Source: a virus
Taxonomy: Duplodnaviria > Caudoviricetes
Length of the DNA stretch: 47,548 nucleotides
Strand: one strand, 5' to 3'
IMG/VR virus record: IMGVR_UViG_3300037790_000016
Coordinates: 1-47,548 of that record
The translations under genes were made by a program, and so were the position numbers. Below the pieces are notes generated by a model. It was not told the origin of the DNA. It was given only the letters and a program-made list of their open reading frames with translations, and ran no database searches. Shown here in pieces: positions 189-46,669 of the stretch. How positions within the stretch are numbered: position 1 is the stretch's first letter; each line of letters begins with the position of its first letter.

Positions 189-212
189 ACTGTGCAATTA
201 TTGTGCAGATTT
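189..212 (+). promoter_or_regulatory. Putative integrase arm-type binding sites overlapping the int stop codon
   Basis: ACTGTGCAATTATTGTGCAGATTT, near-copy of 16-39. Confidence 0.7.
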
Positions 213-1166
213 TTTTTGATTTATGATAGTTTCGTTCAATTTTTGAGATTTTAGAGCTTCGAGATAATGCTTTTCCATTACCTTAATTGTATGCCCAAAT
301 ATTTGAGACGCTATATTCAGTTGCATACCACTTATAATATGAGAATTGATTGCATACTTACGAAAACTATGAAAAGCTACATTACGTCTTTTTGTATTTG
401 TTTTCTTTAATGCTTTATTCAGTTCCCATTTTAAAGAGTCGTAAGAACGGTTAGCAGGTTTTAAATATTTCCTCACCTCTGGGAATGCTTTTAATGGGAA
501 AATACGCTCTTTAGAACCCTTACCGTGAATTACTAAGTGGTCTTTTAGTATATCCTCTTCTTTAATAGATAATACTTCATTAATTCTCATTCCAGTAAGA
601 GTTATTAGTTTTACTACTCTGTAAAGCTCCCCACCTTCAATAGCATCTAATATAGCATCTACTTCGTTATCTGAGAGGAAGCCAGTTTTAACAGTAACTA
701 CTTTAGGAATAAGGGATTTTTTAATAGGGTTTTTATCTACGTATTCGTACTCAATACCAAATTCAAAAAAGTGGTGTACCGTACCAATATACATAGATAG
801 AGTGTTATTACTATAATGAGACTCGGATTTTACTTTTATAACATGTTCACGAATTGCGACACTATCTGAAAGAGTAAAGTTCTTAGTTAGGAATGTATTT
901 AAAGCCCGCAACACAGATTCTTTCCGTTTTGGTTTAAGCTTACTTATATATAGCTCTTCGTATAACTCTTTGAGGTCAGCTACGGTCTTATCTGAAGAGT
1001 AAAGCTGTCTATACCTATCTTCAGCAATTCTAAGAGCAAATTGTCGGTTTGCTTGTTTCCATTTCAGATTAGTTGACTTCCTATCTCCCTTAACAGATGT
1101 ATAGACCACACCGTTACGGTTATAGCAAAAGCAATGATTAAATAGTTTTGATTTCCACTTTTCCAT
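198..1166 (-). CDS. int: Tyrosine recombinase / phage integrase
   Basis: TGMRINE (R), HGKGSKER (K), FHSFRK (HxxR), FGHT (H), HY (Y); adjacent to att. Confidence 0.95.
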   Translation of the reverse strand: MEKWKSKLFNHCFCYNRNGVVYTSVKGDRKSTNLKWKQANRQFALRIAEDRYRQLYSSDKTVADLKELYEELYISKLKPKRKESVLRALNTFLTKNFTLSDSVAIREHVIKVKSESHYSNNTLSMYIGTVHHFFEFGIEYEYVDKNPIKKSLIPKVVTVKTGFLSDNEVDAILDAIEGGELYRVVKLITLTGMRINEVLSIKEEDILKDHLVIHGKGSKERIFPLKAFPEVRKYLKPANRSYDSLKWELNKALKKTNTKRRNVAFHSFRKYAINSHIISGMQLNIASQIFGHTIKVMEKHYLEALKSQKLNETIINQKKSAQ

Positions 1167-1169
1167 AAT

Positions 1170-1212
1170 AAAAAATAGAGGTGGCTAAGGTTTAGGGAAT
1201 ATAGCCACCTCT
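1170..1212 (-). terminator. Intrinsic terminator between cI and int
   Basis: Perfect 11-bp stem AGAGGTGGCTA (1177-1187) / TAGCCACCTCT (1202-1212) followed by a U-tract on the minus strand. Confidence 0.8.
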
Positions 1213-1232
1213 GGGAGTCCTCTTTGATTGCC

Positions 1233-1253
1233 AGTTACAATGGAGATAAAAGA
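1233..1253 (+). repeat. 21-bp sequence AGTTACAATGGAGATAAAAGA, repeated at 5339-5359; partial copies at 10245-10261 and 3738-3748
   Basis: Direct sequence identity. Confidence 0.9.
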
Positions 1254-1259
1254 GGTGTA

Positions 1260-2141
1260 TTATATCGTTTTGTTATAATAATAAGTAACGACTCCTACAA
1301 TTTTGCATTCATCGTCATAGTTTTCTTTTAATGGTAGTGTAAGACCGTCCGCTGAGTGTAACTCTATCTTCCCATCCTTTTCGATGTATTGCTTAACTAA
1401 AAGATTACCATTCAACATAGCAACTACAAAGTTACCAGATTTTGGTTCTAACTCTTTATTAAACACTACTATAGTTCCTTCGGTCATCCCATAATTGACC
1501 ATAGAATTACCAGATACTCTAATAGCTCCGAAGCTCTCAGCTTCGCCCTTAACTCCAGTCATTGTGTTTATCGTCCCATTTGCGTAATCCTCCAAATTTG
1601 GTATAACAGTTGATGTATTTGCGTAAGCTACTTGGTTATATAGCGTTACGGTAGCAAAAAAGTCTTTGAATTTCAAAACCTCTTTCACGTCTATTTCGCT
1701 GTGAGGTACATACTCCATCGACCCTGTACCATCTCTGTACCATTCTGGATTGAGACCGAGCTTTTTTAACAAGCTAATTTGTTCGTAGTTAGAGAATACC
1801 CTGTTTAAGTTCAAATATTGATTAAGGTTCTGAGTAGTCATACCCATAGCATCAGCGAACGCCTTTTGTGAGTTAAACTTAGACTCAATAAAACGTCTCA
1901 ACCTCATTTGAGGGGTTTCGCTTGCGTCCATTTCTCCAACGCCATTGAGGTACCAAGTTGTATTCAAACCAGCGTTTCGTAGTTGCTCTAACTTCTCTCG
2001 AGTTGAGAAAACAAATCCTTGGTTTAAGTATTTGTTTAACATTTGCGGAGAATTGCCTAATTTTCGCGCAAAAGCGGAATTACTTTTAAACCTTTGTTTT
2101 ATAAAGTGTTTAAGACGTTCCTGTGGTGTGTCGAGTGCCAT
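1260..2141 (-). CDS. cI: CI/LexA-like repressor: two tandem XRE-HTH domains + S24 peptidase (probable start 2141; ORF track extends to 2183)
   Basis: Two ~68-aa HTH repeats ending in GLNxxWY..G.G.M; S24 motifs VSGNSM and LLVKQY; divergent from the early operon. Confidence 0.9.
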   Translation of the reverse strand: MALDTPQERLKHFIKQRFKSNSAFARKLGNSPQMLNKYLNQGFVFSTREKLEQLRNAGLNTTWYLNGVGEMDASETPQMRLRRFIESKFNSQKAFADAMGMTTQNLNQYLNLNRVFSNYEQISLLKKLGLNPEWYRDGTGSMEYVPHSEIDVKEVLKFKDFFATVTLYNQVAYANTSTVIPNLEDYANGTINTMTGVKGEAESFGAIRVSGNSMVNYGMTEGTIVVFNKELEPKSGNFVVAMLNGNLLVKQYIEKDGKIELHSADGLTLPLKENYDDECKIVGVVTYYYNKTI

Positions 2142-2176
2142 AATGTTAAAATTTTCATCAAAAAGTTTATAAATAA

Positions 2177-2208
2177 TTTGCATATTTAAACCAGATTGTT
2201 TAAGTTGT
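2177..2208 (+). promoter_or_regulatory. Early rightward promoter (PR-like), FCB-type -33/-7
   Basis: TTTG-N20-TAAGTTGT; spacer overlaps the operator palindrome. Confidence 0.6.
2186..2203. promoter_or_regulatory. Operator O1, TTAAAC-N6-GTTTAA
   Basis: TTAAACCAGATTGTTTAA palindrome in the cI/early intergenic region. Confidence 0.75.
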
Positions 2209-2238
2209 ATTCAGATATTTAAACAAGACAATAAAAGT

Positions 2239-2256
2239 TTAAACCAAACGGTTTAA
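2239..2256. promoter_or_regulatory. Operator O2, TTAAAC-N6-GTTTAA
   Basis: TTAAACCAAACGGTTTAA, same geometry as O1; an extra half-site at 2219-2224. Confidence 0.75.
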
Positions 2257-2282: not shown

Positions 2283-2462
2283 ATGTCAGAGACTAAAGAG
2301 AAAAAAAAGCTACTTCAAGTCTATATATCACCAGCGACAAACAAGTTGCTATTAGACAAAGTAAAAAACACCAGTCCTAAAAAAACAAAATCAAAATTTG
2401 TTGAGGACATTCTGTTATTAGCTTTAACTGGTGACTATAAGAGTTTAATAAACCTTTATTAG
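2283..2462 (+). CDS. 59-aa ribbon-helix-helix-like regulator in the Cro position (not in the ORF track)
   Basis: AAGGAG RBS; MSETKEKKKLLQVYISPATNKLLLDKVKNTSPKKTKSKFVEDILLLALTGDYKSLINLY has a strand-helix-helix pattern. Confidence 0.7.
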   Translation: MSETKEKKKLLQVYISPATNKLLLDKVKNTSPKKTKSKFVEDILLLALTGDYKSLINLY

Positions 2463-3460: not shown

Positions 3461-3677
3461 AGACACTTTCGACTGGGCTGTAGATAAGTTCAAAGATTAC
3501 AAAGTAGTACCATACTATGATAATAAAGTCAATTTTGGCAATGTAATTATAAGAGTTGGTACTGATGAGATAAGATTATTTGGATGCAACGAATTAGTTA
3601 CAGGAAAGATAAACAACCGAAAAATAAAAGATGTTAAAAAAGAGCTGAGGGAGTTCTACAATGCAAAGCACAATTAA
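3447..3677 (+). CDS. Hypothetical early protein
   Basis: GGAG RBS before ATG 3447. Confidence 0.6.
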   Translation: MPLFKDTFDWAVDKFKDYKVVPYYDNKVNFGNVIIRVGTDEIRLFGCNELVTGKINNRKIKDVKKELREFYNAKHN

Positions 3678-3741
3678 AGAATACATAACACTAAGAATAT
3701 GGAAAATATATATTTACTTCAAATAAAAAGGGAGACGTACA

Positions 3742-3843
3742 ATGGAGAATACAAAACAACTAATGGATTTTGTAAGTGATTTAGCTTATGAAGCTCAAAA
3801 AGAGTTAGAACAAGATATTAAAACTGCAAGGGGTCAAAAATGA
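3742..3843 (+). CDS. 33-aa small ORF coupled to the ERF gene
   Basis: AGGGAG RBS; MENTKQLMDFVSDLAYEAQKELEQDIKTARGQK; ATGA overlap with 3840. Confidence 0.5.
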   Translation: MENTKQLMDFVSDLAYEAQKELEQDIKTARGQK

Positions 3844-4415: not shown

Positions 4416-4609
4416 TGAGTTTAGACCGTGAGCAAATAATGGAATTACTTAACGATAGAAGAGAACAGCATAAAGACGCAGTAAGTTATGTATTTTCTCA
4501 ACCTGCAGAAATTAGAGATATGCAAAAGCTGTTTATTTATACGGCACTGGAAAATGAGCTGACTAATATAATATGCGAAATTGAATTAACTGAGGGTAAT
4601 CACGAATGA
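4415..4609 (+). CDS. Hypothetical protein
   Basis: Coupled start/stop codons. Confidence 0.6.
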   Translation: MSLDREQIMELLNDRREQHKDAVSYVFSQPAEIRDMQKLFIYTALENELTNIICEIELTEGNHE

Positions 4610-5340
4610 GTACAATAACAGCACCTAAGCAAAAAGAAATAGACTACTACGATAGACCAGAAATTAGCCACTCTAAGCTAAAGAAATTACAAGTGAGTTA
4701 TAATGAGTTTTTAAAGCCGTTTGATAGTATCAGTGAACCTATGATTATGGGTTCTTTAATGGACGAAGCCGTATTAGAGCCAGAGTTATACGCCACACGT
4801 GAAGAGTCTAAGTTAAAGACTGTAACGTCAAAGGGATTTTTAGAAGAGTATAAAGAAAAGGGTTTGATAATCCCAAATGGTAAAAAAGACAAGATAGATA
4901 ATGCTGTAAAAATAGTGAAAAATCACCCACTCTATTATCTATTAGAGGGAGATGTTCAAACTGAAATATACGAAACTTTGAACGGTGAGCCGTGTAAGAG
5001 CAAATTAGATGTCTTGAACTTAGATAGAAGCCGTATAATCGACTTTAAAACGACTTCTAAGGACTTAAGCGACATTACACCTTACTATTGGGTTAGAAAT
5101 TGGTTCTATCATACTCAGTTAGCTTTTTATCGTCAAATGGTGAGCAAAGCATACGGTATTAATGCTGAGTGTTATTTATTTGTTTACAGCTGGTCTAATG
5201 AAGATGTAAGAGTATTCCAACTATCTGAAGACACACTTAGTGAAGCTGATAGAATTATAGACGGTTGGTTTGACAAATTAGCAAATGTAAAGATAGACGG
5301 TGCTTTTAAGGGAATGAGTGCCGAAGTAGAAATTATTTAG
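4606..5340 (+). CDS. PD-(D/E)XK exonuclease (RecE/ExoVIII, DUF3799-like)
   Basis: ISHSKLK, CKSKLD, IIDFKTT, YHTQLAFY; next to ERF. Confidence 0.85.
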   Translation: MSTITAPKQKEIDYYDRPEISHSKLKKLQVSYNEFLKPFDSISEPMIMGSLMDEAVLEPELYATREESKLKTVTSKGFLEEYKEKGLIIPNGKKDKIDNAVKIVKNHPLYYLLEGDVQTEIYETLNGEPCKSKLDVLNLDRSRIIDFKTTSKDLSDITPYYWVRNWFYHTQLAFYRQMVSKAYGINAECYLFVYSWSNEDVRVFQLSEDTLSEADRIIDGWFDKLANVKIDGAFKGMSAEVEII

Positions 5341-5359
5341 TTACAATGGAGATAAAAGA

Positions 5360-6100
5360 ATGAAATTAGTAAACTTACTAGCTTCGAGTCATTACAATAT
5401 ATACAATAAAGAAATAGCGAGGAAATATGGAGTATTAACTTCAATTATTCTATCTCAATTATGTTCTATGAGTGATAATTTAGCTGGTGAAGACGGTTGG
5501 TTTTTTTGCTCAGCTGACACTATGGAAAATGAAACCACTATATCAGCATATAAACAAGCCAAATGCTATAAGAAACTAGAGGAAGCTGGTTTAATTGAGA
5601 CTAAATTAAAAGGATTACCAGCAATTAAACACTTTAGAATAAAAGACCTTACCATATTACTAGAGGATTTAGAAACAACAACCAAAACTACTAAAAAACA
5701 AGATTTCAAGAAACTTGAAAACTTATATAAAGAAACTTCAAAACAAGATGTCAAGAAACTTGACACTATTAATATAACTAATCAATATAATAATCAATAT
5801 AAAGATAATAGGGTCTCTTTTAAAAAATTCCTTGAGGTATATCCGAGTAATAGAGATGAGCAAAAAGCATATTCAGTATTCCATAGCTTTTTAAATGAAG
5901 AGGAAAAGCAAAAAGCAATAGATAAAATACCAATCTATTTAAAATACTTAGAAGTATCTGAAACACAAAAGTTTTTAAAAGCACCAGCTAACTACTTAAA
6001 AGATAAGACATTCAATACTGACTGGGAAAAAGAGATTGGTAGAATACAGAAATACAGTAAAGAGCCAGAACCTAACTCACGGTTTAAGGAGGTTCTGTGA
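5360..6100 (+). CDS. Phage replication initiator
   Basis: N-terminal wHTH (DGWFFCS...ET.IS...Q), low-complexity linker with iterons, C-terminal F...YP..K..A..YL domain; precedes DnaB. Confidence 0.8.
   Translation: MKLVNLLASSHYNIYNKEIARKYGVLTSIILSQLCSMSDNLAGEDGWFFCSADTMENETTISAYKQAKCYKKLEEAGLIETKLKGLPAIKHFRIKDLTILLEDLETTTKTTKKQDFKKLENLYKETSKQDVKKLDTINITNQYNNQYKDNRVSFKKFLEVYPSNRDEQKAYSVFHSFLNEEEKQKAIDKIPIYLKYLEVSETQKFLKAPANYLKDKTFNTDWEKEIGRIQKYSKEPEPNSRFKEVL
5695..5802. repeat. Putative replication origin (iterons + AT-rich repeats)
   Basis: AAAACAAGAT(T/G)TCAAGAAACTTGA at 5695-5718 and 5740-5763 (each with the TCAAG-AAA-CTTGA palindrome); AAGAAACTT between them; TAATCAATATAA twice at 5779-5802. 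Confidence 0.75.
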
Positions 6101-7464
6101 GTATTGCGAACCTATTGAACAACGTAAGACCTCACACAAAGGAATATGAGAAGCTCTTAATTAGTGCTTTGATGCAAAAGCCAGATACTATAAAAGAGTA
6201 TTACGATTTCTTAACTCCTGAGATGTTTTACGATATAAAATACTCTAAGATATACTCAATAATTTTAGATATGTATAATGCTGGCGAGGATATCAATCTA
6301 ATAACATTATCTGAAAAGCTTAGACGCTCTGGGGATTTAGACAAGATTGGTGGACGTGCTTATTTAGCTTCACTATTAAAAGAGTTTTTATCTACGGTAG
6401 AGGTTAAGTCAAAAGCTATGGATGTTTACTATTTCTATCTAAAACGACAATTTATAGATAAGACTGGCAATGTATTAGAAAAGGCTTTTAACTCGAATTC
6501 TAACCTAATTGATATATATAATGATATTGCAAATATAACAGCTGACTTGCAAACAAAAATAGATATTGAGGAAAATCAAAGCGAAATAGAGAAAATAGAA
6601 GCCGTAAGAGCTGAGACCTTAGACATTATTAGAGGTATTAAACCGAGAATAGATACACCGTTTGCAGATGTAAACAAATTCTCATTTTTCTTAACTGGGG
6701 AAGTCCTAACTATAGCGGCTAGACCACGAATGGGTAAGACGGCACTTGCACTAACTTTAGCAGAACATTGGAGTAAGAATTACAAAGTCTATATAGCTTC
6801 GTTGGAAATGAAAGAGGAAGCATTGATTAAAAGGCGTATGAGTTACCACTCTGGGGAGTCGATGTATGATATACACCATAGCGAAGACGCTCTAAACAAA
6901 GCGACTGATGAGCTAATTAGAAGCACAAACGGTAATATTATAATTGATGACCGCTCTGAGATATGCTATGAGAATTTAGCAGGTGTAGCTCGAAAAGCTA
7001 AGGATATGGGATGTACTATGATGTTTATTGACTTTATTCAGTTACTACCATCAAAGATAACAGACGAAGTAGCAAAGATAACAAACGCAATTCGATTAGT
7101 ACAAAGGTTAGCTAAGCAATTTGATTTATTAATGATACCACTTGCACAATTAAATAGAGATGCTGAAGGTTCTAATAACTATCAAATGAAACACCTCAAA
7201 GGGTCAGGAGCTATTGAGGAAGCGTCTAACCATATTTGGTTTTTAGATAGACCAGAAGTAAGCTCACCAGATAAGAGTATAACAGTTAAGGGAGATACTA
7301 TACCACCAGAGGGTATAGCGAAATTAATGACAATTAAGAATAAGAACGGAGCTTCAGATATGTTGACTTGGCTAATATACAATAAGGAAGCTATGAAATT
7401 TGAAAACTATTTAAGCACCTCGCAATGGGAGTCCAGAGGTGGCGAAATTACAAGTAATTTTTAG
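6097..7464 (+). CDS. dnaB: Replicative DNA helicase, DnaB family
   Basis: DnaB N-domain (KIGGRAYL), AARPRMGKT Walker A, SLEM, IDFIQL, LAQLNR, GSGAIEE. Confidence 0.95.
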   Translation: MSIANLLNNVRPHTKEYEKLLISALMQKPDTIKEYYDFLTPEMFYDIKYSKIYSIILDMYNAGEDINLITLSEKLRRSGDLDKIGGRAYLASLLKEFLSTVEVKSKAMDVYYFYLKRQFIDKTGNVLEKAFNSNSNLIDIYNDIANITADLQTKIDIEENQSEIEKIEAVRAETLDIIRGIKPRIDTPFADVNKFSFFLTGEVLTIAARPRMGKTALALTLAEHWSKNYKVYIASLEMKEEALIKRRMSYHSGESMYDIHHSEDALNKATDELIRSTNGNIIIDDRSEICYENLAGVARKAKDMGCTMMFIDFIQLLPSKITDEVAKITNAIRLVQRLAKQFDLLMIPLAQLNRDAEGSNNYQMKHLKGSGAIEEASNHIWFLDRPEVSSPDKSITVKGDTIPPEGIAKLMTIKNKNGASDMLTWLIYNKEAMKFENYLSTSQWESRGGEITSNF

Positions 7465-7474
7465 GGAGATTATA

Positions 7475-8997: not shown

Positions 8998-9008
8998 TTG
9001 AAAATTTA

Positions 9009-9040: not shown

Positions 9041-9080
9041 TATAGTTGGTTTGAGTAAGACCTCCTATTTATTTATAAAC

Positions 9081-9149
9081 GGTTACTACTGCAACCGAAT
9101 AACTAAACAATGTTTAGCGTGGCTGTAAAGCATAGGTTGCAGAGTAATT
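9081..9149 (+). ncRNA. Candidate structured leader RNA (three-way junction)
   Basis: CTGCAACC/GGTTGCAG stem extended by GGTTACT/AGTAATT, enclosing a CTAAAC/GTTTAG hairpin and a GCT-GTAA-AGC GNRA hairpin. Confidence 0.45.
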
Positions 9150-9175
9150 GAAAAACAAACAAACGGAGTAATAAA

Positions 9176-10209: not shown

Positions 10210-10241
10210 TTTGGAAAAGTCATAATAATTTACTATATTAG
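10210..10241 (+). promoter_or_regulatory. Motif TTTGGAAAAGTC-N12-TATRTTAG, copy 1 (putative middle/late promoter)
   Basis: Three copies with identical spacing (10210, 23437, 26170). Confidence 0.7.
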
Positions 10242-10252
10242 AGTCAGTTACA

Positions 10253-10552
10253 ATGGAGATAGTGAAACAATTCTTAAACAATAAAGAATATAAGTTACCT
10301 ATCAATTTATACAAACTCAATCCTTGTAGGGAGTGGGTATTAGCAAAATTAAGATTAAACGGTCTTTACGTGAAAGTAGCTTTGATAATGAACGAGTTAA
10401 ATTATAGAGGTATATCCGTTGAGGAAACGGCTGGGATGCTGACCAAAATAATGGAGCTTAGCGAAAAGCACTCAGTAGAGCGAGTAGTCGAGATAATGGA
10501 ACGATATGCCAAATCGAAGCGAGCTGAAGAAGGAATTGACGACTCTTTTTAA
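10253..10552 (+). CDS. Hypothetical protein
   Basis: ORF directly after the promoter motif. Confidence 0.6.
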   Translation: MEIVKQFLNNKEYKLPINLYKLNPCREWVLAKLRLNGLYVKVALIMNELNYRGISVEETAGMLTKIMELSEKHSVERVVEIMERYAKSKRAEEGIDDSF

Positions 10553-17810: not shown

Positions 17811-18164
17811 ATGAATAGAGAAATAAAGTTTAGAGCTTGGAACGGTTCTAAAATGAGGTACAAAGTTAATATTGACGATGGCAAATGTGTAAGATATGGT
17901 TACCAATGGTTTAATAAACAAAATGATGTTTATAGTGCAGAACCTATGCAATACACTGGAGTAAGAGATAAAAATGGTGTGGATATTTATGAGGGGGATA
18001 TTATTAAAACCGATATAGGGACTGCGTTTGAAAGCGTAATGGTTGTAGAGTACTGCGAAACAATAGCAAGTGATGATATGGGTACAGATACAGTAGGTTT
18101 CAGAGTAAGTGAATATGATGAAGTAATAGGCAATATATACGAAAACCCTGAATTATTAACATAG
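17811..18164 (+). CDS. yopX: YopX-family protein
   Basis: MNREIKFRAW, MQYTGVRDKNGVDIYEGDI, EVIGNIYENPELL. Confidence 0.9.
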   Translation: MNREIKFRAWNGSKMRYKVNIDDGKCVRYGYQWFNKQNDVYSAEPMQYTGVRDKNGVDIYEGDIIKTDIGTAFESVMVVEYCETIASDDMGTDTVGFRVSEYDEVIGNIYENPELLT

Positions 18165-20309: not shown

Positions 20310-20595
20310 GCAATAGAGGTAACCAATGACTAAAATACAGCACTACAAATTGAACAAGTGGAATCCATTAACTTATTTATGGCTTTTAGCATCTTCAATA
20401 ATGGTTATTCCGTCTACTGTATATAAACATATAAAAGGTTACTTACCTTACTTCAAAGAGCGTACTGTAACTTCACCCAGCAGAGGGTATGTAATAACTG
20501 GTATAGTTGTAAAATGCGAAAGCCCTAAAAAGCCTAAGAAAAAGGTAAAAAGGCAATTAAGAGAAAGAAAGCAATAGAGGTAACCAATGACTAAA
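20310..20595 (+). repeat. 25-bp direct repeat GCAATAGAGGTAACCAATGACTAAA flanking ORF 20326..20577
   Basis: Exact copies at 20310-20334 and 20571-20595. Confidence 0.9.
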
Positions 20596-25470: not shown

Positions 25471-25728
25471 CTATAGAAATTCGGTTTTATTTTCCCTTTG
25501 AACAAAATTCCCAGAAAACGACACTTCGCCAGTTACAGGAGTTTTCTCAGCATCAGCATTTTCTAATACACTAATAGCATCATTAAGTTCGCCTATTATA
25601 TCTAAAATTGCATCAGTATCAGGGCAGGGTGAGTTATCTTTGCAATTTCTTGCGACAAAACTCATTTTAATAAAATCTTCTTTAGTTTTAGCTCTTTGTT
25701 CTTTTAGTTGTTCAATTATTCTATTCAT
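25471..25728 (-). CDS. Moron hypothetical protein
   Basis: Leader AAATCGGAGTTGAAATG shared with the neighbouring gene. Confidence 0.7.
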   Translation of the reverse strand: MNRIIEQLKEQRAKTKEDFIKMSFVARNCKDNSPCPDTDAILDIIGELNDAISVLENADAEKTPVTGEVSFSGNFVQRENKTEFL

Positions 25729-26169: not shown

Positions 26170-26201
26170 TTTGGAAAAGTCTATTTTTTTTCGTATGTTA
26201 G
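26170..26201 (+). promoter_or_regulatory. Motif TTTGGAAAAGTC-N12-TATGTTAG, copy 3 (upstream of the capsid operon)
   Basis: Same core and spacing as 10210 and 23437. Confidence 0.7.
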
Positions 26202-46221: not shown

Positions 46222-46244
46222 AAGCCCCTCGAAAGAGGGGTTTT
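46222..46244 (+). terminator. Terminator at the prophage right end
   Basis: AAGCCCCTC-GAAA-GAGGGGTTTT. Confidence 0.75.
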
Positions 46245-46356
46245 ACTGTGCAGAAATTGTGCAGATTTAGAGTTAATTAGAGTGTTTTGGAGGTAGTCTG
46301 AAACCTCGCAAACCTTTGGGAGCGTTGACATATATGAACGTTATTATTTTGGGCAC
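46230..46356. repeat. Exact 127-bp repeat, copy 2 (attR-like junction)
   Basis: Identical to 1-127, then continues into a host gene. Confidence 0.95.
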
Positions 46357-46669
46357 CAAGAAGTGCAAGGAAACTAAGAAAGCGATACGATTCTTCAAAG
46401 AGAGGAGAATAACTCCACATTTCAGAGATTTGAATGAGAAAGAACTGAGCAAAGGGGAGCTGAATAATATCGCTAATAAGGTTGGAATAGATAATATGAT
46501 CGATGAAGATAGTAAGGCATACAAAGACAAGGGGCTGCAGTACATGACTTACGATGTTGCGGAGGAGCTGTTGGAAAATAATGACTTACTCAAAACACCT
46601 TTGGTTAGAAATGGGAGTGACGCAACAGTTGGGCATGACCCTAATAAATGGAACGAATGGGTGAAGTAA
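46334..46669 (+). CDS. Host ArsC/Spx-family (thioredoxin-fold) protein; integration target
   Basis: GTKKCKETKKA.RFFKER, ELL.N..LLKTPLVRNG..ATVG; GGGAG upstream of ATG 46334. Confidence 0.85.
   Translation: MNVIILGTKKCKETKKAIRFFKERRITPHFRDLNEKELSKGELNNIANKVGIDNMIDEDSKAYKDKGLQYMTYDVAEELLENNDLLKTPLVRNGSDATVGHDPNKWNEWVK

Follow-up and report, generated by a model that had tools for sequence, protein, structure and literature searches.

A candidate trans-acting antisense RNA downstream of a phage repressor gene, complementary to the ribosome-binding region of the replication initiator

Why does a temperate phage carry, directly behind its repressor gene, an exact copy of the sequence that precedes the start codon of its replication initiator? 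The 21-nt sequence AGTTACAATGGAGATAAAAGA is identical at 1233-1253 and 5339-5359 of the window (the whole stretch of 47,548 nt analysed here). The second copy abuts the rep ATG (5360) and contains its GGAG Shine-Dalgarno (SD) sequence at 5348-5351, while the first lies in the 93-nt gap between cI and int, between the cI stop codon (1260-1262) and a minus-strand terminator-like stem, with the opposite strand complementary to the rep leader. The positions given in the original prediction are all correct; it proposed that a small RNA derived from the cI mRNA could block translation of replication genes during lysogeny. The antisense part of that proposal is favoured by the present analysis: the gap probably yields a trans-acting antisense RNA of ~84-95 nt that would prevent both rep and a second gene, ORF 10253, from being translated. 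The proposed origin from the cI mRNA is not required, as a TATAAT box would place a separate start at 1252-1253.

The genome is that of a temperate phage of ~46.2 kb within the window, where a 130-nt repeat is found at 1-130 and 46230-46359. Host-type genes (an ArsC-like gene and two thioesterase genes) lie 3' of the second repeat copy, and one thioesterase shows 98% and 92% identity to genes of Chlorobiota-labelled MAGs and 87-88% identity to those of MAGs with a Bacteroidota or Ignavibacteria label. Within 1-250 and 46230-46359, the 130-nt repeat carries arm-type-looking ACTGTGCA repeats (16, 189, 46245); the window start is attP-like, while its end is attR-like and runs into the ArsC-like host gene, the 5' end of which is phage-supplied. 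The record may fuse excised and integrated forms of the phage. The seven sequencing runs containing at least half of the stretch are pond metagenomes, six of which may be its source, and no RNA dataset is listed among the runs that contain it.

The gene order by PHROG assignment is int (minus strand), the 93-nt gap, cI (minus strand), a Cro-position ORF at 2283, erf (3840), exonuclease (4606-5340), an O-like initiator, DnaB, ssb, ORF 10253, ninG and terminase (Table 1). A non-coding stretch after ssb (9060-9150), with the inverted arms TTACT...TGCAACC and GGTTGCA...AGTAA, is possibly a structured RNA.

Table 1. Features of the repressor-integrase gap, the immunity switch and the matched start regions (window coordinates).
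Feature	Position	Strand	Basis or remark
Tyrosine integrase	198..1166	-	phrog_1 E 7e-31; ATG 3 nt beyond terminator U-run
Predicted intrinsic terminator	1170..1212	-	11-bp stem 1177-1187/1202-1212, 14-nt loop, U6 tail
Weak seed hairpin CCTCTTT/AAAGAGG	1219..1255	-	predicted fold, z -2.2
21-nt antisense seed	1233..1253	-	exact complement of rep ribosome-binding region
Perfect TATAAT, candidate -10 box over cI stop codon	1259..1264	-	-35 TTACTT poor, 18-nt spacer
CI-like repressor, two HTH-like repeats and S24 domain	1260..2183	-	phrog_4 E 3e-23; Pfam PF12844 and PF00717
Two exact palindromes TTAAAC-N6-GTTTAA in switch	2186..2256 (2186, 2239)		
Cro-position ORF	2283..2462	+	Atlas features 0.93 to RHH_1 cluster (lead only)
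11-nt match over ATG of 33-aa ORF 3742, which overlaps erf	3738..3748	+	chance-level
Main candidate target: whole exo-rep spacer with GGAG SD	5339..5359	+	exact match and energy rank
O-like replication initiator (rep)	5360..6100	+	phrog_9773 E 7e-15
DnaB helicase	6097-7464		directly after rep; phrog_19 E 4e-61
Promoter-like TTGGAA-17-TATATT	10211..10239	+	one of three TTGGAAAAGTC sites; retained in relative L261
Second candidate target: ORF 10253 codons 1-3, 7-nt leader and predicted 5' end	10245..10261	+	
ORF 10253, conserved helical protein (99 aa) outside the named families	10253..10552	+	upstream of ninG

The immunity switch appears to have its own control sites. The two TTAAAC-N6-GTTTAA palindromes are likely the true operators and unrelated to the repeat; outside the switch, the genome contains no such site with fewer than two mismatches. 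Both HTH-like repeats of CI match the same targets, and the Cro-position ORF is likely a ribbon-helix-helix (RHH) protein. At its 5' end, the longest cI frame overlaps the rightward promoter region with 14 codons (2141-2183); two homologue records begin at the second Met, so the true cI start may be near 2141. AT-rich repeats led by TTTGCAT (family D2/D4/D5; at 9003, 16822, 26094, 44419 and 2160) are likely promoters of sigma-70 type, located in the switch and ahead of accessory genes. The switch of a distant cI relative (L174, 8810-8870) contains five GTAAC/GTTAC repeats, the pentamer that opens the core of the repeat described here; these are probably the operators of that phage and the likeness coincidental.

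The length of the repeat argues against chance. With the terminal repeat set aside, the 1233/5339 match is the second-longest exact repeat of the genome, and none of 120 genomes simulated by Markov models (orders 2 and 5) contained a repeat of at least 21 nt, so exact-repeat statistics speak for the original prediction. The 17-nt match that it placed over the predicted 5' end and start codon of ORF 10253 is likewise exact (1232-1248 = 10245-10261). Repeats of 17 nt alone are frequent, being found in 21/60 and 35/60 simulated genomes, and this match counts because it has the same 16-nt core as the 21-nt match. A third match, over the ATG of ORF 3742, is also present (1236-1246 = 3738-3748), but its 11 nt fall below the modal longest match of random 93-nt tiles (12 nt, n=495) and are therefore at chance level. 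ORF 3742 is thus rejected as a proven target and could at most be a weak secondary one.

Each of the two main targets is closer to the gap copy (21 and 17 nt) than they are to each other (16 nt). The three exact core copies of the genome are all in the same orientation on the plus strand, two of them at gene starts, and a genome scan found no wider core family above chance at 2 mismatches. When 994 tiles were scanned, 11 had at least 16 nt antisense to some start region. Only the cI-int gap tile lies in a non-coding part of a predicted transcript; the other ten were judged on inspection to be either the target copies, duplications of att or repeats running from one start to another.

On the minus strand, fold prediction places a terminator-like hairpin 48 nt past the cI stop, in agreement with the original prediction. 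The fold is strong (z -6.9; 0/200 shuffles equal), although it was missed by an automatic terminator scan, its 14-nt loop exceeding the 8-nt limit of the scan. It is the predicted 3' end common to the cI mRNA and the proposed small RNA. The CCTCTTT/AAAGAGG hairpin around the seed, also anticipated, is present in the predicted fold and by itself modest, 8/200 shuffles being as good; the plus strand folds equally well at this position (-12.5 kcal/mol). The seed covers the 5' arm of the hairpin, the internal loop and the UUGUAAC loop, and in the predicted structure, with its unpaired probabilities, the anti-SD bases sit in the internal loop while UUGUAAC forms the apical one. No Rfam family matched at E<=1 anywhere in the window, and only sub-threshold unrelated matches were obtained on 1100-1330.

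The TATAAT over the cI stop codon is the sole minus-strand TATAAT within 1100-2400, and only 3 of 93 ORF stops, that of cI included, overlap such a hexamer. As a -10 box it would put the +1 at 1252-1253 (6-7 bases downstream), at the edge of the 21-nt match, and the RNA would then be ~84 nt long, with the seed at its 5' end and a looser hairpin. The box suggests that the RNA may have its own promoter rather than derive from the cI mRNA. Transcription of the minus strand to the terminator at 1170 is thus envisaged either as the 3' end of the cI mRNA or from a promoter of its own starting at 1252-1253, with the odds about even. The conserved terminal Ile of cI, whose codon forms part of the TATAAT, was considered as support for a promoter and rejected, as it is also found in the distant cI of L174, where there is no such gap.

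Target scores were expressed as co-folding energy net of self-structure for the 155 start regions of the genome (mean -3.4, sd 3.2). The best-scoring starts are rep (-22.6 kcal/mol) and ORF 10253 (-17.9 kcal/mol), in line with the original prediction, whereas ORF 3742 ranks third (-11.8 kcal/mol), next to starts at -11.5 and -11.3. In a genome-wide scan of 3696 windows, with the 60 best by duplex energy re-scored, the same two lead, self-matches aside (-23.2 and -17.9; next -12.6). This ranking is not independent support, since it mostly restates the exact match. The 84-nt form of the RNA scores better, with -27.9 for rep and -20.1 for ORF 10253. Of the four positions at which pairing with the two main targets is first interrupted, three would allow a G-U pair, which is a weak indication, C-T/A-G changes being common. 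With G-U pairs the duplexes lengthen to 23 nt for rep and 20 nt for ORF 10253 (20 contiguous pairs, two of them G-U).

The antisense reading is thus supported by a 21-nt match beyond the simulations with rep and ORF 10253 as the top predicted partners, and by a predicted +1 that falls on the edge of the repeat, the shorter RNA being predicted to bind better. The copy at rep spans from the exonuclease stop to the ATG, with the GGAG 8 nt upstream, and this leader is predicted to be unstructured. The spacer also contains a mini-ORF, MEIKE followed by a stop (5346-5363), which overlaps the rep ATG. The copy at ORF 10253 starts ~7 nt past the TTGGAA-17-TATATT site. There is no palindromic operator near this promoter-like site, so a second lock would be useful here; the other two TTGGAAAAGTC sites precede portal and head genes. 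Promoter-like sites of the form TTTGGAAAAGTC-N-TATRTTAG, at 10210, 23437 and 26170, are likely a middle/late promoter class, and that at 26170 would yield a near-leaderless mRNA (ATG 26206).

The start of ORF 10253 is supported by six homologues (76-91% identity), which keep the beginning M-E/G-I-V-K-Q-F. The protein has no Pfam, PHROG, PDB-sequence or viral-fold match, and the weak top fold match of its model (pLDDT 67.6) is a DnaD domain (2i5u; Z 6.6, rmsd 3.0, 68 aligned).

Other possible partners were considered. A split 8+7-nt match at the dnaB 3' end (7428-7442) was rejected, being chance-sized and within coding sequence; pieces of 8, 11 and 8 nt in the same region (7428-7470) match the gap linker, terminator stem and loop and are also chance-sized. 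In the host, the exact 16-nt core is absent from five relatives, which contain 42 core matches at <=2 mismatches versus 17 for the reversed control, an excess that may reflect codon composition.

Homologues of cI at 55-84% identity exist only in Logan/ENA. Searches of IMG/VR found three distant loci by cI and none by rep, int, exo or ORF 10253, a cI alignment gave no match in GTDB and JGI, and INPHARED contains distant proteins only. Among 130 host-family genomes, queries with DNA, integrase, ORF 10253 and the gap sequence returned only ssb-like, distant or chance matches. Pattern scans of viral contigs yielded 62 loci with the 15-mer, none related to the window, and one match each to the promoter and seed-terminator patterns, both unrelated. 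A single relative, the 1872-nt L261, was found in JGI by ORF 10253; it does not include the cI region. It shows 80% identity in ORF 10253 and retains the promoter-leader unit, preceded there by another gene, with a 1-nt insertion (extra A) in the target core that weakens the predicted pairing of its leader with the RNA of this phage to -15.6/-11.1.

Twenty-four other repressor-like ORFs (27-40% identity or weaker) are found in 19/26 host-family loci, some of them not prophage repressors and some loci incomplete. In the 250 nt that follow them, antisense matches to a start never exceed 12 nt, compared with 21 and 17 nt here, which indicates that in the loci compared the antisense element is rare or recent and not a family-wide trait. 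A distant host-family prophage (L176) has repeats of 15-23 nt clustered in intergenic gaps of its lytic operon (3493-3530, 3870, 4990-5100), which could be another RNA or operator element. Counting against the antisense reading are the knowledge of the feature from one genome with no family-wide copy, the L261 indel in the core, the equal hairpin of the plus strand and the poor -35.

The strongest rival is that a 16-nt gene-start cassette was copied in module exchange and that the 1233 copy is a functionless leftover of duplication or recombination. The copies at 5339 and 10246 bracket the rep-dnaB-ssb module, all three are co-oriented on the plus strand, the promoter-leader unit in L261 is joined to another upstream gene, and the element was not found in distant relatives. 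Further exact repeats occur in start regions (25 nt at 20310/20571, 19 nt at 18162/18764 and 17 nt at 25726/25998); those of 25 and 19 nt indicate that such repeats emerge in this phage with no antisense partner, which counts against the antisense reading. Repeats over the SD and start codon of small ORFs (20310/20571/19693, 18162/18764, 25726/25998) may be SAS-like or cassette junctions. The other repeats, however, run from start to start, whereas the 1233 copy is followed only by a frame of 12 codons running antisense to cI, has no in-register plus-strand promoter and sits within a hairpin that a terminator and a -10 box flank. This origin, judged unlikely for the gap copy, would moreover require two separate copying events and the absence of subsequent decay.

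Less probable still is that the asymmetric 16-nt core is a stoperator-like DNA site for the double-HTH CI, or for an RHH protein, which would block transcription both at rep and from the 10211 promoter, while the 1233 copy would serve to modulate read-through into int. The asymmetry itself is compatible with CI in view of its two HTH-like repeats; a monomeric two-domain repressor on an asymmetric site is described in the consulted part of PMC9283540. One core copy overlaps a predicted +1, and AGTTACAA also occurs downstream of the 26171 promoter; its 10 occurrences versus 4 expected nevertheless include the three copies themselves. Against a DNA site stand the number of copies (just three), the lack of any core symmetry beyond 3 nt, the reversed orientation of the 1233 copy relative to transcription and the L261 indel within the core. 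The best core match in the cI-cro switch, 10/16, equals the background (9-10), and the switch has its own palindromes. Sites of the CII or RHH type are typically internally symmetric, unlike the core. The CII-like or RHH site offered as the alternative in the original prediction consequently finds little support, there being neither internal symmetry nor a copy in the switch, and the stoperator-like site and the duplication relic are the stronger rivals.

It is most improbable of all that the plus strand is the active one, the sense 1233 copy acting in an anti-cI transcript or its 12-codon peptide, or as a decoy that draws off a translational repressor, an RNA-binding protein recognising this leader on both rep and ORF 10253: a similar hairpin folds on that strand (-12.5 kcal/mol), the 1240 frame opens with MEIKE, as does the mini-ORF preceding rep, and a GTTACA-18-TATTAT site lies at 1234-1263, but promoter-like sites are at background (50 found versus 44 expected), this spacing is not kept at the other copies and the terminator U-run is on the minus strand only.

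In the antisense mechanism, pairing would be nucleated by the UUGUAAC loop and the exposed anti-SD bases of the RNA, on the rep leader, which is predicted to be unstructured, and likewise on the ORF 10253 mRNA at its free 5' end. The duplex would then zip to 20-23 bp with no need of Hfq, and the RNA would occlude the SD of the initiator as well as the short leader and start of ORF 10253. Leaky lytic transcripts of a lysogen, or the early transcripts of a superinfecting sibling, would thus give no initiator, while upon induction the lytic mRNA would out-titrate the RNA, setting a threshold for replication. Hfq was found in 0/5 host-relative genomes, whose completeness is unstated (control positive in 5/14), which fits long perfect pairing.

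The proposed RNA may be compared with known phage systems, as these are described in the consulted parts of the cited papers. The C4 RNA of phages P1 and P7 is trans-acting, exposes in loops its complementarity to a ribosome-binding region, and is encoded in the c4-icd-ant operon, where it silences the antirepressor (PMC12197685, PMC8198154, in part). The RNA proposed here resembles it in predicted loop-exposed complementarity and in forming a second immunity layer beside a protein repressor. Unlike C4 as described there, it would lie at the 3' end of the repressor gene, on the strand opposite targets 4.1 and 9.0 kb away, and be aimed at the initiator; it has no Rfam match, and the Rha/Ant gene of this phage ranks only 15/155 (-7.6 kcal/mol). 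Antisense RNA is also reported, in work by Heinrich from 1995 that PMC9948254 cites, to control the P1 lytic replicon.

The P4 CI RNA is processed from the transcript that it controls and pairs with the flanking seqA and seqC to cause premature termination (PMC4825925, in part). Like it, the RNA proposed here would block the element's own replication genes in the lysogen, although the pairing would be over the initiator SD, on another transcript and beside a protein CI; no complementary copy of the seqA/seqC type flanks the element. The sar RNA of P22, lambda OOP and aQ are cis-encoded and, where the position is given, transcribed opposite their target (PMC12197685, in part). They are similar in long perfect complementarity and in occluding translation of a lytic or decision gene, whereas the RNA proposed here (1170-1259) would be trans-encoded, with copied target sequence and two targets (5339, 10245). 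The STnc6030 RNA of BTP1 is, in the part consulted, likewise a cis-acting phage antisense RNA (PMC7067206), again unlike the trans-encoded arrangement here.

Two DNA repeat systems are also similar in part. The SAS of Cluster K mycobacteriophages is a 13-bp sequence found upstream of starts in many copies and, rarely, in a different context, and whether RNA or protein binds it is left open in the part consulted (PMC3203893). It is likewise an asymmetric exact repeat with an SD just upstream of starts, while the present repeat has three copies, one with its complement in a predicted transcript. The stoperators of Cluster A mycobacteriophages are numerous and asymmetric, and their repressor, which has two DNA-binding domains, also binds early lytic promoters (PMC9283540, in part). 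The likeness is an asymmetric site and a CI with two HTH-like, putatively DNA-binding repeats; the difference is that there are three copies here and none in the switch.

A predicted terminator common with the upstream cI mRNA is shared with small RNAs derived from 3'-UTRs. Such RNAs accumulate as discrete species, by processing or from an internal promoter, for which the TATAAT is a candidate -10 box here. In enterobacteria they typically act by Hfq-assisted short seed pairing; the pairing predicted here is long and perfect, and the Hfq count in host relatives of unstated completeness is the 0/5 noted above.

The phage antisense systems compared, as far as the consulted parts describe them, act in cis or on antirepressor or termination sites. 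A literature survey, with incomplete coverage of older and subscription papers, found no repressor-3'-end RNA directed against a replication initiator. What would be new here is an RNA encoded in trans, where the repressor gene itself ends, and directed at the ribosome-binding site of the initiator.

More tentatively, and with rather less confidence than is given to an antisense RNA as such, cI could be seen as ending in an RNA repressor: an Hfq-independent trans antisense RNA, copied from its targets and silencing both, whose promoter would lie within the final codons and stop codon of cI. ORF 10253 would then be the first gene of an operator-less middle/late transcript and possibly a second, DnaD-like replication factor.

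If true, protein and RNA immunity would form one genetic cassette, coupling the shut-off of replication to immunity and constraining module exchange. The match between RNA and leader would be a second immunity specificity, which must change in step with swaps of the replication module. A repressor 3' gap antisense to the rep leader offers a signature that can be sought in prophage collections. It would represent a new wiring of lysogeny control in little-studied, apparently Hfq-less hosts, whose relatives are labelled Chlorobiota or Ignavibacteria.
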